DNA of 64,000 bases from Escherichia coli (GTDB lineage: Bacteria > Pseudomonadota > Gammaproteobacteria > Enterobacterales > Enterobacteriaceae): NCBI RefSeq assembly GCF_050920415.1, contig NZ_CP169309.1. The stretch is one strand, 5' to 3'. The notes beneath the pieces were generated by a model. It made no database searches and was not told the origin of the DNA. It saw only the letters and a program-made list of their open reading frames with translations. Numbering within the stretch: position 1 is the first letter of the stretch; each line of letters begins with the position of its first letter. The translations under genes and the position numbers were made by a program. Below are positions 19,386 to 42,898 of the stretch, in pieces.

Positions 19386-19809
19386 CTGGTGGTTCGCCAC
19401 ATCACCCCGCCTCCGCCAGCTTTGCTGGGCATTCTGGTTGATGATGTTAGTTACGCTCATTTTTCTGTCATCGACACACCAGGAAGAGAGCGACGCATTA
19501 ATTCGACTACGGGCAAGTCATTACCAGCAGTGGGCCGCACTGTATCGCCTGGTAAACACCACTCCCTTCAGTGAGGAAAAAACGCAGCCCTTTTCGCCAC
19601 TGGATTTTCAGTTATCCGGCGCGCAACTGGTTTACTGGCATCCATCCGCGCAGGGAGGTGAGTTGGCGTTGAAAACGCTGTGGGAAGCAGTGCCGTCGGC
19701 ATTTACACGGCTGGCAGAGCGCAACGTCAGCGTGAGCCGTTTTTCGTTAAGCGTGGAAGGTGATGACCTTTTGTTCACGCTACAACTGGAGACGCCGCAT
19801 GAGGGTTAA
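19369..19809 (+). CDS. hofO: HofO (PilO-like)
   Basis: 146 aa, N-terminal TM WAFWLMMLVTLIFL; overlaps hofN and hofP. Confidence 0.85.
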   Translation: MDMLFDWWFATSPRLRQLCWAFWLMMLVTLIFLSSTHQEESDALIRLRASHYQQWAALYRLVNTTPFSEEKTQPFSPLDFQLSGAQLVYWHPSAQGGELALKTLWEAVPSAFTRLAERNVSVSRFSLSVEGDDLLFTLQLETPHEG

Positions 19810-20203
19810 ACGCTGGTTGTTGGCAGGTATTGCATTGTGCCTTTTAACCGGTATGCGTGACCCTTTTAAACCGCCGGAAGATCTATGCCGGATTAGCGAA
19901 CTTAGCCAGTGGCGCTATCAGGGGATGGTAGGGCGAGGCGAGCGCATCATCGGTGTAATAAAAGATGGGCAAAAAAAATGGCGACGGGTGCAGCAAAACG
20001 ATGTGCTGGAAAACGGCTGGACGATCTTACAGCTAACGCCAGACGCACTAACGCTGGGAACCGGGACAAACTGCGAACCGCCACAATGGTTGTGGCAACG
20101 GCAAGGAGATACAAATGAAGCAATGGATAGCCGCACTACTGTTGATGCTGATACCCGGCGTACAGGCGGCAAAGCCGCAAAAAGTGACGCTGATGGTGGA
20201 TGA
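19799..20203 (+). CDS. hofP: HofP (PilP-like lipoprotein)
   Basis: MRVKRWLLAGIALCLLTGMRDPFKP...; the 3' end overlaps hofQ by about 89 nt. Start is within a longer track ORF (19760). Confidence 0.8.
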   Translation: MRVKRWLLAGIALCLLTGMRDPFKPPEDLCRISELSQWRYQGMVGRGERIIGVIKDGQKKWRRVQQNDVLENGWTILQLTPDALTLGTGTNCEPPQWLWQRQGDTNEAMDSRTTVDADTRRTGGKAAKSDADGG

Positions 20204-38588: not shown

Positions 38589-38915
38589 TTAACCGCGTAG
38601 CTGTACCACGCCGTCTTTCACTCGTGCCTCGTAATGCTTGACGGAAAACTGTTCATCTTCCATGCATAAACCGTCGCTTAAGCGAAAACGCTGTTTTTTC
38701 AGCGGACTGGCGACCCACAGCTCGCCCTGGTGTTCCGCAATCAGCCCGCGTGACAGCACGCTGGATTCGAAGAACGGATCGATGTTGCTGATCGCAAACA
38801 CCTGGTCGCTGTGATACGGGCGGAAAATCGCTACCTGCTCGTCACCTAACAGCGCGCAGACGCCGGTTTCAGGCAGGATGTCATCAATTTTGCAGATGTC
38901 TTTCCACTGGCTCAT
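38589..38915 (-). CDS. nirD: Nitrite reductase (NADH) small subunit
   Basis: 108 aa MSQWKDICKIDDILPETGVCALLGDEQVAIF... Confidence 0.95.
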   Translation of the reverse strand: MSQWKDICKIDDILPETGVCALLGDEQVAIFRPYHSDQVFAISNIDPFFESSVLSRGLIAEHQGELWVASPLKKQRFRLSDGLCMEDEQFSVKHYEARVKDGVVQLRG

Positions 38916-41455
38916 GCGTTGTCCTCCACCAGAGTTACCGGGATACGTTCATACGGCGTTGCCGGACGGTGCTGTTCGCGCTCTGGCACCATCTGCACGT
39001 TCGGGTCACGCTTGTCGCTGTTGATGAAGTGTTTGAAGCGAATCTGCGCGGACGGTGTATTGACCGTTTCAGTCCACTCACACACTACCGCTTCACGCAG
39101 GCGCGCCATCTCTTCTTCCAGATGTGCGTTCAGCCCCAGCTTGTCGTCAATGATCACCGCTTTCAGGTAATCGATGCCGCCTTCGAGGTTTTCTAACCAC
39201 GGTGCGGTACGCGTCAGTTTGTCGGCAGTACGGATGTAGAACATCATGAAGCGGTCAAGATATTTGATCAGCGTTTCGCGATCGATATCCGCTGCCAGCA
39301 GATCCGCATGACGCGGTTTCATGCCGCCGTTACCGCACACATACAGGTTCCAGCCTTTTTCGGTGGCGATAATACCTACGTCTTTACCCTGAGCTTCTGA
39401 ACATTCACGGGTACAGCCGGAGACACCGAACTTCATTTTGTGCGGCGTACGGATGCCTTTGTAGCGGTTTTCCAGTTCCACGCCGAGGCCGACGCTGTCG
39501 CCAACGCCATAGCGGCACCAGGTGCTACCCACGCAGGTTTTCGCCATACGCAGTGCTTTCGCATAGGCATGACCGGTTTCGAAACCTGCTTCAATCAGCT
39601 GACGCCAGATCTCCGGCAGATCGTCTTTCTGTGCGCCAAACATCGCCAGACGCTGGGAGCCGGTGATTTTGGTGTAGAGATTAAATTCACGCGCGATACG
39701 ACCCACTGCCATCAGCCCTTCTGGGGTGATTTCACCACCCGGAGAACGCGGGATCACCGAGTAGGTGCCGTCTTTCTGGATGTTAGCGAGGAAGTTGTCG
39801 TTAGAATCCTGCAGCGGAGTATGTTCCGGCTTCAGAATGTATTCGTTCCAGCAGGAGGCCAGCAGCGAACCGACGGTCGGTTTACAAACCTCACAACCGT
39901 AGCCTTTACCGTGTTTCGCCAGCAGTTCTTCGAAGGTTTTAATGCCTTCAACGCGGATCAAATGGAACAGTTCCTGACGCGAATAAGCAAAGTGTTCGCA
40001 CAGGTTATTGTTAACTTCGATACCCTGTTTTGCCAGTTCCGCGTTCAGTACCTGAGTGACCAGCGGGATACAGCCACCGCAGCCAGTACCCGCTTTGGTT
40101 TCGGCTTTCAGCGCCGCAACGGTGTGGCAGCCTTTGTTGATGGCAGCAATCAGATCGCCTTTGGTGACGTCGAAGCAGGAGCAGATTTGCGCGCTGTCCG
40201 GCAGTTTATCAACACCAATAGACGGCTTGCCGCTACCTGAGTGCGCCGGCAGGATCAGGGAATCCGGGTTTTCCGGCAGTTCGATTGCGTTCAGCACCAG
40301 TTGCAGCAGGTTACCGTAGTCGCTGGTATCACCCACCAGTACTGCACCGAGCAGGGTTTTGTTGTCTTCGCTGACAATCAGGCGTTTGTAGATCTCTTTA
40401 CTTTCGTCGAGGTAAACGTAGCTACGTGCGCCAGGCGTGCGACCGTGAGCATCGCCAATACCGCCTACGTCTACGCCAAGCAGTTTCAGCTTGGCGCTAA
40501 GGTCAGCACCTTCAAAGGCGTTTTCGCTACCGAGAATATGGTCAACGGCGACCTGCGCCATTTTGTAGCCAGGTGCTACCAGACCAAATACACGGTTGTT
40601 CCAGCTTGCGCATTCACCGATGGCGTAGATATCTGGATCGGAAGTCTGGCAGGAATCATTAATGACGATACCCCCACGAGGAGCAACGTCCAGACCACAC
40701 TGGGTTGCCAGCTTATCGCGCGGACGGATACCGGTAGAGAAGACGATAAAGTCGACTTCCAGTTCGCTGCCGTCGGCAAAACGCATGGTTTTACGCGCTT
40801 CGACACCTTCCTGCACAATCTCAAGAGTGTTTTTGCTGGTGTGAACGCGTACACCCATGCTTTCGATTTTGCGACGCAATTGCTCGCCGCCCATCTGATC
40901 AAGCTGTTCCGCCATCAGCATAGGGGCAAATTCGATAACGTGGGTTTCAATGCCTAAGTTTTTCAGCGCGCCAGCGGCTTCCAGACCTAACAGGCCGCCG
41001 CCAACAACGGCACCGCGCTTACTGCGACGGGCGCAGGATTCAATGGCGTTGAGGTCTTCAATGGTGCGATAGACAAAGCAGTCCTGAGTATCAGAACCTT
41101 TGATTGGCGGGATCCACGGATAGGAACCGGTCGCCATGATCAGCTTGTCATAAAAAACGGTACGTCCGGCGCTGGAGTGAATCACCTTCTCCTGACGGTT
41201 GATGGTGATAGCGCGTTCGCCGACCAGAACTTTAATACCGTGTTTTTCGTAAAAGCCTTCGCGCACCAGCGACAGCTCTTCGGCGGTGTGGTGAGAGAAG
41301 TAAGACGAGAGGTGTACGCGGTCATAAGCGATGCGCGGTTCTTCACAGAAAACGGTAATATCAAAGTTGGCCGCATCAGATTTATCAAGAAGATCTTCGA
41401 TAAAGCGATGGCCGACCATACCGTTACCGATAATTGCGAGTCTGACTTTGCTCAT
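38912..41455 (-). CDS. nirB: Nitrite reductase (NADH) large subunit
   Basis: 847 aa; N-terminal FAD/NAD fold MSKVRLAIIGNGMVGHRF; ATG 41455. Confidence 0.96.
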   Translation of the reverse strand: MSKVRLAIIGNGMVGHRFIEDLLDKSDAANFDITVFCEEPRIAYDRVHLSSYFSHHTAEELSLVREGFYEKHGIKVLVGERAITINRQEKVIHSSAGRTVFYDKLIMATGSYPWIPPIKGSDTQDCFVYRTIEDLNAIESCARRSKRGAVVGGGLLGLEAAGALKNLGIETHVIEFAPMLMAEQLDQMGGEQLRRKIESMGVRVHTSKNTLEIVQEGVEARKTMRFADGSELEVDFIVFSTGIRPRDKLATQCGLDVAPRGGIVINDSCQTSDPDIYAIGECASWNNRVFGLVAPGYKMAQVAVDHILGSENAFEGADLSAKLKLLGVDVGGIGDAHGRTPGARSYVYLDESKEIYKRLIVSEDNKTLLGAVLVGDTSDYGNLLQLVLNAIELPENPDSLILPAHSGSGKPSIGVDKLPDSAQICSCFDVTKGDLIAAINKGCHTVAALKAETKAGTGCGGCIPLVTQVLNAELAKQGIEVNNNLCEHFAYSRQELFHLIRVEGIKTFEELLAKHGKGYGCEVCKPTVGSLLASCWNEYILKPEHTPLQDSNDNFLANIQKDGTYSVIPRSPGGEITPEGLMAVGRIAREFNLYTKITGSQRLAMFGAQKDDLPEIWRQLIEAGFETGHAYAKALRMAKTCVGSTWCRYGVGDSVGLGVELENRYKGIRTPHKMKFGVSGCTRECSEAQGKDVGIIATEKGWNLYVCGNGGMKPRHADLLAADIDRETLIKYLDRFMMFYIRTADKLTRTAPWLENLEGGIDYLKAVIIDDKLGLNAHLEEEMARLREAVVCEWTETVNTPSAQIRFKHFINSDKRDPNVQMVPEREQHRPATPYERIPVTLVEDNA

Positions 41456-41512
41456 TTTTGCCTCGATTTCTTTTCTATTACCGCCTACCTTAACGATTCA
41501 GCAACCCCGCTT

Positions 41513-41526
41513 ATTGATGTAAATCA
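41513..41526 (-). promoter_or_regulatory. FNR binding site of the nirB promoter
   Basis: Perfect TTGAT-GTAA-ATCAA palindrome; a TAAGGT -10-like hexamer lies at 41486-41491 on the nirB strand, about 31 bp downstream of the site centre, consistent with a class II FNR promoter. Confidence 0.85.
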
Positions 41527-41539
41527 AATTCACCTTTAT

Positions 41540-41555
41540 ATACTCCTTAAGAGGT
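41540..41555 (-). promoter_or_regulatory. Candidate NarL/NarP 7-2-7 site upstream of the FNR site
   Basis: TACTCCT-TA-AGAGGTA inverted heptamers, centred 28 bp upstream of the FNR site centre. Confidence 0.6.
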
Positions 41556-41716
41556 ATATTGCTGATTTGTATAAATTTTCTTAAGTCACGGAATTGTCTG
41601 ACATTTCATTCGTGTGCAAAAAATAGACAAAATGAAAGGGTTTATAGAAATAGACGTACGTAGCGGGGTAAGTGAGGAAAAGGCCGGACGACGATAGCGC
41701 CGCCCGGCATGAGCAA

Positions 41717-42898
41717 TTAATGAGAGGTCAGGGTGTTATGCTGACGGTGACGGCTGACGAAACCTAACAGGAAGCACATCACAAAGACGACAGCGTACAG
41801 ACCGTTTGCCGTCAGCAGCGCCGCCTTTGGACCGCTATGTTCAACAATCGGGCCGGTAACGACAAAGGTCAGCATGGTACCGATGGTCCCGCAGGTCAGG
41901 ACAAAGTTAACCAGTTTTGGTGACGGTACTTTGGTTTGCTGTGAACCCAGGGTGATGATGGTGGTATAGATCGCGCTGGAGAAGAAGCCCAGGGCGAGAA
42001 TTGACCACGCCATATGTGCCGGTGTTCCGGTGTTAAAGACGTACATTAGAATCGCAGCCAGACCGGCCAGTACGGTCAGAATACGTTGCAAATCAAAGAA
42101 GCGAAGAATAAAGCTGAACGCCCACATGCCGACCATATAGGACATCCAGAAGTTACTCACCAGCGTACCTGCGTCGTTCAGGCTCATGCCCAGGCCTTTG
42201 GCATACTCTGGTACCCAGGAGATAAAACCTAACTGACCGAGGATGTAGCACAGCGCCGCAACAGAGAGAAACAGCACGCCGATCCCCCATTTTTCTTTCG
42301 CTACCGGAGCATCCGTTTTTGGTGCATGTTTGCCCAGTGCCGGAAACTCACAGCCGAAGGTCAGAATAAAAATAGCGACGTAAACCAGCCCGATGCAGGC
42401 ATAAACCCAGTACCACTCAATGCTGCGCGCCAGCAGAAACGCGGCGATCATTGGGAAAATCATCCCTGCCATACTGAAGAAGGAGTCGGTAAATAACAGG
42501 CGAGAACCGCGCTGACGCCCTTCATACATTTGTGTTATCAGGAATGTACCAATCGACATAGTGATACCGCTGACCACCCCGAGAATGAACATCGCTGCCG
42601 AGAAAAGCGCCAGGCTGTGGCTAAACATCAAACCAGCAACCGCTAGCACCATCAGGAGAAAGCCAAAACGTAACTGCGTTTTTAACGGGACGATTTCCAT
42701 CAGCCAGGCATTGAGGAAGATAGAGATTAAAATGCCAGCATTGAGGAAGGTGAAGGTGTTACTCATACTGGAAACAGGCAGATTGAAATAATCGGCGATA
42801 TTTCCCATCACCATCCCGGTGACAATAACCAACGCACCCGTCAGTGCGTAGGAGAGAAAGCTAATCCATGTGAGCTTGATGCGATTGCTGTTAGTCAT
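41717..42898 (-). CDS. tsgA: MFS-type transporter TsgA
   Basis: 393 aa, 12-TM-like hydrophobicity, [24 protein letters not shown]... Confidence 0.92.

Follow-up and report, generated by a model that had tools for sequence, protein, structure and literature searches.

The pnir promoter of Escherichia coli is among the best-characterised activator-dependent promoters of this species, has been studied by the Busby, Cole and Browning laboratories, and already serves in vaccine strains as an expression promoter that anaerobiosis induces. The products of its operon, nirBDC-cysG, are a cytoplasmic NADH-dependent nitrite reductase, a nitrite transporter and sirohaem synthase. According to PMC3688515, the FNR site of nirBDC-cysG is located at -41.5; in PMC4216584, TAAGGT is given as the essential -10 element of K-12 nirB, with the original mutational work cited, and the transcription start is placed 23 or 24 nt upstream of the ATG. 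For the region further upstream, PMC10853779 describes NarL at -69.5 as clashing with IHF at -88, in a cooperative anti-repression mechanism, and NarL is credited mainly with displacing IHF, relieving the Fis/IHF repression of FNR-dependent activation, rather than with recruiting RNA polymerase in the classical way (PMC10853779 and PMC3688515). Control of nirBDC-cysG by FNR and NarL/NarP had already been predicted in Yersinia and Vibrio by comparative genomics (PMC1805755).

Here, the promoter upstream of nirB was analysed in a stretch of 64,000 nucleotides of E. coli DNA (64 kb), referred to as the window, with promoter positions counted from the transcription start. The feature is almost certainly pnir itself, the single FNR- and NarL/NarP-controlled promoter of E. 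coli nirBDC-cysG, with the anti-repression mechanism as published. Nothing that was observed speaks against this identification. The pnir of the window is already known as a textbook promoter controlled by oxygen and by nitrite/nitrate, and finding it carries little weight as a discovery.

By sequence comparison, the locus of the promoter is the tsgA-nirB intergenic region of E. coli, which is framed by the following features:

38912..41455, minus strand: nirB coding sequence (847 aa), first gene of nirB-nirD-nirC-cysG, from the ORF list and the RefSeq annotation of strain MFDS1022581 and K-12.
41455, minus strand: nirB ATG, from sequence reading and the ORF list.
41683..41708, minus strand: intrinsic-terminator-like hairpin and T-run right after the tsgA stop, from a terminator scan (11-pair stem, 9 GC pairs).
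41717..42898: tsgA, an ORF of 393 aa, from the ORF list.

Downstream of the promoter, nirB, nirD, nirC and cysG correspond to window ORFs of 847, 108, 268 and 457 aa, and the genomic context ppiA / tsgA / nirB-nirD-nirC-cysG follows from the ORF list together with the RefSeq annotation of identical or near-identical records. Position 41455, named as the nirB ATG in an earlier note drawn up from the sequence of the window, is the right coordinate and opens the 847-aa ORF. The 421-bp stretch 41380-41800 was matched in 5425 of 5426 complete E. coli genomes, with tsgA upstream and nirB downstream in the RefSeq annotation. It is 100% identical in strain MFDS1022581, where the neighbourhood reads pabA-fic-yhfG-ppiA / tsgA-nirB-nirD-nirC.

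The terminator-like hairpin is predicted to isolate pnir from tsgA read-through, and nirB would therefore need a promoter of its own. Two stem positions of the hairpin carry G where K-12 has A, so that G-U replaces an A-U pair at one of them and G-C replaces a loop-closing A/C mismatch at the other. Across the 421-bp tsgA-nirB junction, an identity of at least 99% to the window is reached by no more than 20 of 5427 E. coli records, and the window would therefore come from a minority lineage; the promoter 68-mer carrying the allele of the window also occurs in a strain named ST648. Two plus-strand ORFs that overlap the promoter region (41177..41584 and 41331..41522) were rejected as spurious, being antisense to nirB and unannotated in the RefSeq records. 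An Rfam scan of both strands of 41300-41900 returned nothing credible and thus no structured RNA, a match to IsrM being at chance level (16.5 bits, where the gathering score is 376). Elsewhere, the 86-kb E. coli plasmid NZ_AP027533.1 carries, at 19755-19855, the first ~100 nt of nirB only, 100% identical and without the promoter region; a mobile element has probably captured this fragment.

Within the intergenic region, the elements of the promoter and of the nirB leader are arranged as follows:

41541..41556, minus strand: NarL/NarP 7-2-7 site TACCTCTTAAGGAGTA, TACCTCT-TA-AGGAGTA, from a consensus match; centre 41548.5, equal to -69.5.
41514..41527, minus strand: FNR site TTGATTTACATCAA, TTGAT-TTAC-ATCAA, from a pattern match; centre 41520.5, equal to -41.5.
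41487..41492, minus strand: -10 hexamer TAAGGT, -13 to -8, from sequence reading; centre 41489.5.
41478..41479, minus strand: putative transcription start, from the geometry and the published K-12 start, the sequence being identical to K-12 here.
41461..41464, minus strand: Shine-Dalgarno-like GAGG, 5 nt before the nirB ATG, from sequence reading.

The earlier note had described the FNR palindrome, a TAAGGT -10-like hexamer on the nirB strand and a 7-2-7 pair of inverted heptamers, and all three exist, each placed 1 nt too low (41513-41526, 41486-41491 and 41540-41555 for 41514-41527, 41487-41492 and 41541-41556, respectively). The regulatory architecture was thus recognisable from raw sequence, with a systematic slip of one base in the coordinates. 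The FNR palindrome, called perfect, is perfect in its 5+5 half-sites TTGAT-N4-ATCAA only, with an asymmetric central TTAC; the heptamers, TACCTCT and TACTCCT when read against each other, are mutually symmetric at 5 of 7 positions and both fit TACYYMT. The spacings that had been proposed are exact when taken from centre to centre, with 31 bp between FNR site and -10 hexamer, corresponding to a gap of 21 bp between the FNR 14-mer and TAAGGT, and 28 bp between 7-2-7 and FNR site.

When the FNR centre is set to -41.5, +1 falls on A 41479, the -10 hexamer on -13 to -8 and the 7-2-7 centre exactly on -69.5. The leader would then measure 24 nt, 41478 with 23 nt being the other published option; a leader of about 23 nt and a start near 41478, as had been suggested, are therefore among the published possibilities, whereas FNR at -41.5 favours 41479. 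The published distances for FNR, NarL, -10 and start are all reproduced in the window, and the comparison with the published pnir architecture that the earlier note had called for accordingly yields FNR at -41.5, NarL/NarP at -69.5 and a start 23-24 nt before the ATG. The sequence of the window contains an FNR recognition sequence, centred near -41.5 and overlapping the -35 region, where the -35 hexamer is poor or absent, as in a class II FNR promoter; spacing, K-12 identity and published positions agree on this class and on the upstream NarL/NarP site, both of which had been proposed from the letters. The role of NarL is refined by the literature to relief of IHF/Fis repression, in place of simple co-activation.

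The FNR consensus TTGATNNNNATCAA has a single match in the 64-kb window, at 41514-41527, with 0.14 expected by chance and at least one match in 12 of 100 shuffled sequences; taken in one window alone, the significance of this match is modest. The double heptamer consensus TACYYMTNNAKRRGTA (TACYYMT-NN-AKRRGTA) likewise has a single match in the window, at 41541-41556 and without mismatch, where 0.01 matches are expected and 1 of 100 shuffles gives one. A sigma-70 consensus scan (-35 plus -10) of 41300-41900 gave no promoter-like site, which is expected because the promoter is activator-dependent and has no usable -35 element, and which does not count against it.

For the comparison across species, loci were anchored on a degenerate NirB coding motif (residues I8-E20), with one genome per species. 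This avoids circularity, since an anchor in the coding sequence makes the comparative test independent of the promoter. At least 120 loci from other species were obtained, mostly from Enterobacterales, with some from Vibrionaceae, Psychromonas and Gilliamella. Among the matches listed, an FNR site with at most 1 mismatch was found 70-105 bp upstream of the anchor in 113 of 120 species; at 85-86 bp from the anchor, as in E. coli, it stands in 100 of 114 sequences (the 113 listed species and the window). These 100 sequences were stacked ungapped on the FNR site for an information profile, so that all percentages below refer to them, among the matches listed.

In this profile, the TTGAT and ATCAA half-sites reach 1.8-2.0 bits and are 97-100% conserved, compared with 0.8-1.6 bits in the central 4 bp, where 23 different tetramers occur among the matches listed. 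The -10 element follows the same pattern. TAnnnT was found exactly 21 bp after the FNR 14-mer in 107 of 113 listed species, mostly as TAAGGT (78), followed among the matches listed by TATTGT (8), TATGTT (7) and TATCGT (5); T-13, A-12 and T-8 are invariant in the 100 sequences. In the leader, G+18 and A+21 of the Shine-Dalgarno-like GAGG are 99-100% conserved.

For the NarL/NarP site, the best 7-2-7 match was sought throughout the 400 bp upstream, and in 97 of 114 sequences (the window and 96 of the 113 listed species) it stands at a distance of exactly 28 bp from the FNR centre. A 7-2-7 with at most 2 mismatches at this position is present in 90 of 111 species among the matches listed, against a background of 2.2e-4 per position. 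The heptamer ends TAC and GTA are 95-98% conserved and the inner Y/Y/M positions vary; TAC...GTA is kept in 91 of the 111 listed species over 65 distinct 16-mers.

By their conservation across species at fixed spacing, the promoter elements are far beyond chance, and precisely the FNR, NarL/NarP and -10 bases are under strong purifying selection in about 100 listed species of Enterobacterales. The published FNR, NarL/NarP, -10 and IHF-region elements emerge again, independently, from the phylogenetic footprint over about 100 listed species.

Some loci depart from this arrangement at the heptamers. In two Morganellaceae loci, those of Moellerella and Morganella, 71 bp, in place of 28 bp, separate the FNR centre from the best 7-2-7 site upstream of it. 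Four Vibrio loci have the pattern TACYY-N5-RRGTA, in which the ends of the heptamers stand one bp nearer to each other than they do in the enterobacterial 7-2-7. The nirB promoter of Escherichia albertii NBRC 107761 has the distal heptamer CACCACT, whose first position is not the T that is 95% conserved elsewhere, and is E. coli-like in its remainder.

The window equals K-12 MG1655 base for base from -71 to beyond the ATG (to +37). In a three-way alignment with K-12 MG1655 and O157:H7, mean column identity is 98% over 291 columns, and all three sequences are identical from -71, the last base of the distal heptamer, through the start codon. Differences within promoter elements are confined to heptamer positions 5-6 (-73/-72; window 41550-41552), where the distal heptamer reads TACCTCT in the window, TACCCAT in K-12 and TACCCCT in O157:H7. 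Alleles were counted as exact copies of the 68-mer spanning -102 to -35 in 5425 complete E. coli genomes:

TACCCCT: 3802 of 5425 genomes.
TACCCAT, the K-12 allele: 1203 of 5425 genomes, about 22%.
TACCACT: 126 of 5425 genomes.
TACCTCT, the allele of the window: 50 of 5425 genomes, about 1%, and thus rare.
Other changes in the 68-mer: 244 of 5425 genomes.

The K-12 allele, studied for 30 years, is therefore a minority in the species and not the commonest distal heptamer. At least four distal-heptamer alleles exist in E. coli, three of four of which, including that of the window, fit TACYYMT.

The alternative that survives best accepts a K-12-like promoter and holds that TACCTCT alters affinity, or the balance between NarL, NarP and IHF, such that the lineage responds to nitrate/nitrite in a quantitatively different way. 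That the only promoter-element differences from K-12 fall at -73/-72 in the distal heptamer, that this heptamer exists in at least four natural alleles and that it abuts the IHF-like core described below all speak for such an effect. However, the variation falls on the degenerate Y/Y/M positions of the consensus, which three of the four alleles still fit, and between species the inner positions vary freely while TAC and GTA are held, which suggests near-neutrality; moreover, the 16-mer of the window is the second most common among the species listed and is identical in several Citrobacter species. We therefore consider an altered response in this lineage unlikely. The broader proposal, equally doubtful, is that the distal heptamer of pnir is a natural polymorphic hotspot whose alleles could tune the competition of NarL/NarP with IHF, and with it a lineage-specific induction of the cytoplasmic nitrite reductase by nitrite/nitrate. 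Because the variable bases are degenerate consensus positions that are also free to vary between species, the polymorphism is most likely neutral.

Upstream of the 7-2-7 site and across the -10 hexamer, three further candidate sites were located, none of them named in the earlier note:

41576..41586, minus strand: conserved A-rich block ACTTAAGAAAA, -107 to -97, from the conservation profile.
41555..41567, minus strand: IHF-like core AATCAGCAATATA, -88 to -76, with 12 of 13 positions matching WATCARNNNNTTR.
41490..41502, minus strand: Cra/FruR-like half-site GCTGAATCGTTAA, -23 to -11, overlapping the -10 hexamer, from a pattern match.

A scan with the IHF consensus and one mismatch gave 95 matches in the window, with 82 expected, and is uninformative alone; the IHF-like match was therefore used only alongside conservation and the published -88 position. 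The core and the distal NarL heptamer have 2 bp in common, in agreement with the published IHF/NarL clash. In the 100 sequences, among the matches listed, AAATCA (41563-41568, minus strand; -89 to -84) is 94-98% conserved, and for this block and ACTTAAGAAAA conservation is as strong as for the ends of the NarL heptamers. The two blocks probably belong to the IHF I core and a Fis/IHF site of the repressive nucleoprotein complex. Fis II was reportedly mapped at -97 of pnir by Browning et al. between 2000 and 2008, and the conserved block at -107 to -97 presumably coincides with this region. The Cra/FruR half-site pattern has 3 matches in the window, with 1.2 expected, which is weak alone, and the site at the -10 was kept as a lead; its positions -23 to -14 are 73-94% conserved in the 100 sequences, among the matches listed. 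Binding of Cra near -16.5 of pnir is said to have been observed by Tyson et al. in 1997. The regulators listed for nirB in PMC3686733 are Fnr (+), NarL (+), FruR (-) and Fis (-).

For the way in which the promoter would work, the published mechanism is the best supported. Having no usable -35 element, pnir would depend on an activator. Under anaerobiosis, dimeric [4Fe-4S]-FNR would bind TTGAT-N4-ATCAA at -41.5 (41514-41527) and, as a class II activator, recruit and activate sigma-70 RNA polymerase at TAAGGT (41487-41492), with transcription starting about 24 nt upstream of the nirB ATG. IHF around -88, together with Fis, would dampen this FNR-dependent activation from upstream. In the presence of nitrate or nitrite, phosphorylated NarL or NarP would bind the 7-2-7 at -69.5 (41541-41556), and as this site overlaps the IHF core, IHF would be displaced and the repression relieved. 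The Cra-like half-site across the -10 would probably add catabolite control. Anaerobic, fnr-dependent transcription of the window promoter is carried over here from the identical K-12 sequence per the literature, and NarL/NarP binding at the window site is predicted, NarL binding at -69.5 having been reported for the K-12 allele. In the same way, protein binding, start point and anti-repression as a whole, which come from the literature or from the geometry, are established in K-12 and would extend to the window by sequence identity.

Instead of acting by anti-repression, NarL/NarP at -69.5 might co-activate in a class I-type manner, by contacting RNA polymerase (alpha-CTD). At other promoters, such as yeaR and ogt, NarL makes direct contact with RNA polymerase (PMC10853779), and the strict spacing of 28 bp from FNR, about 2.7 helical turns, would suit a protein-protein or face-of-helix requirement. 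Against this, the literature credits NarL at pnir with IHF displacement and relief from Fis/IHF repression (PMC10853779 and PMC3688515), and the IHF-like core, conserved as much as the heptamer ends, reaches into the distal heptamer. Such direct contact at pnir seems to us improbable, slightly more so than an effect of the allele, and anti-repression is the mechanism we retain.

That the motifs are chance consensus matches in AT-rich intergenic DNA, without a regulatory role, is hardly conceivable: taken alone, the single FNR match in 64 kb departs only mildly from expectation (0.14, with at least one in 12 of 100 shuffles) and the generic sigma-70 scan finds no promoter here, but the sequence is identical to an experimentally characterised K-12 promoter, the 7-2-7 consensus is expected 0.01 times in the window, and the joint arrangement is kept at fixed spacing in about 100 listed species in which neighbouring bases drift, so that chance is effectively refuted by the conservation data.

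Among known systems, the closest is pnir of K-12 itself, with which the promoter of the window shares the locus, FNR at -41.5, the 7-2-7 at -69.5, the -10 hexamer TAAGGT and the candidate IHF-like core at -88; it differs by the two substitutions in the distal heptamer and by about ten more upstream of -118 and in the tsgA terminator. The pnrf promoter of E. coli belongs to a different operon, that of the periplasmic nitrite reductase, and has a different sequence. Its NarL/NarP site lies at -74.5, compared with -69.5 in pnir, and nitrate represses it at high concentration. It resembles pnir as a class II FNR promoter with FNR at -41.5 (PMC3688515) and by an upstream NarL/NarP 7-2-7, with suppression by nucleoid-associated proteins that is countered by NarL/NarP (PMC5434802). 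The yeaR and ogt promoters share the same 7-2-7 NarL recognition element; according to PMC10853779, however, the position of NarL is -43.5 in yeaR, and -44.5 and -77.5 in ogt, and there RNA polymerase is a direct target of NarL activation, without FNR, whereas at pnir NarL acts from -69.5, through FNR, by anti-repression. The nirB promoters of other Enterobacterales (among them Salmonella, Citrobacter, Klebsiella, Enterobacter and Yersinia) have FNR site, TAnnnT and 7-2-7 at the same relative positions as the window, and differ from it in the central FNR bases, the inner heptamer bases and the -10 variants TATTGT, TATGTT and TATCGT.
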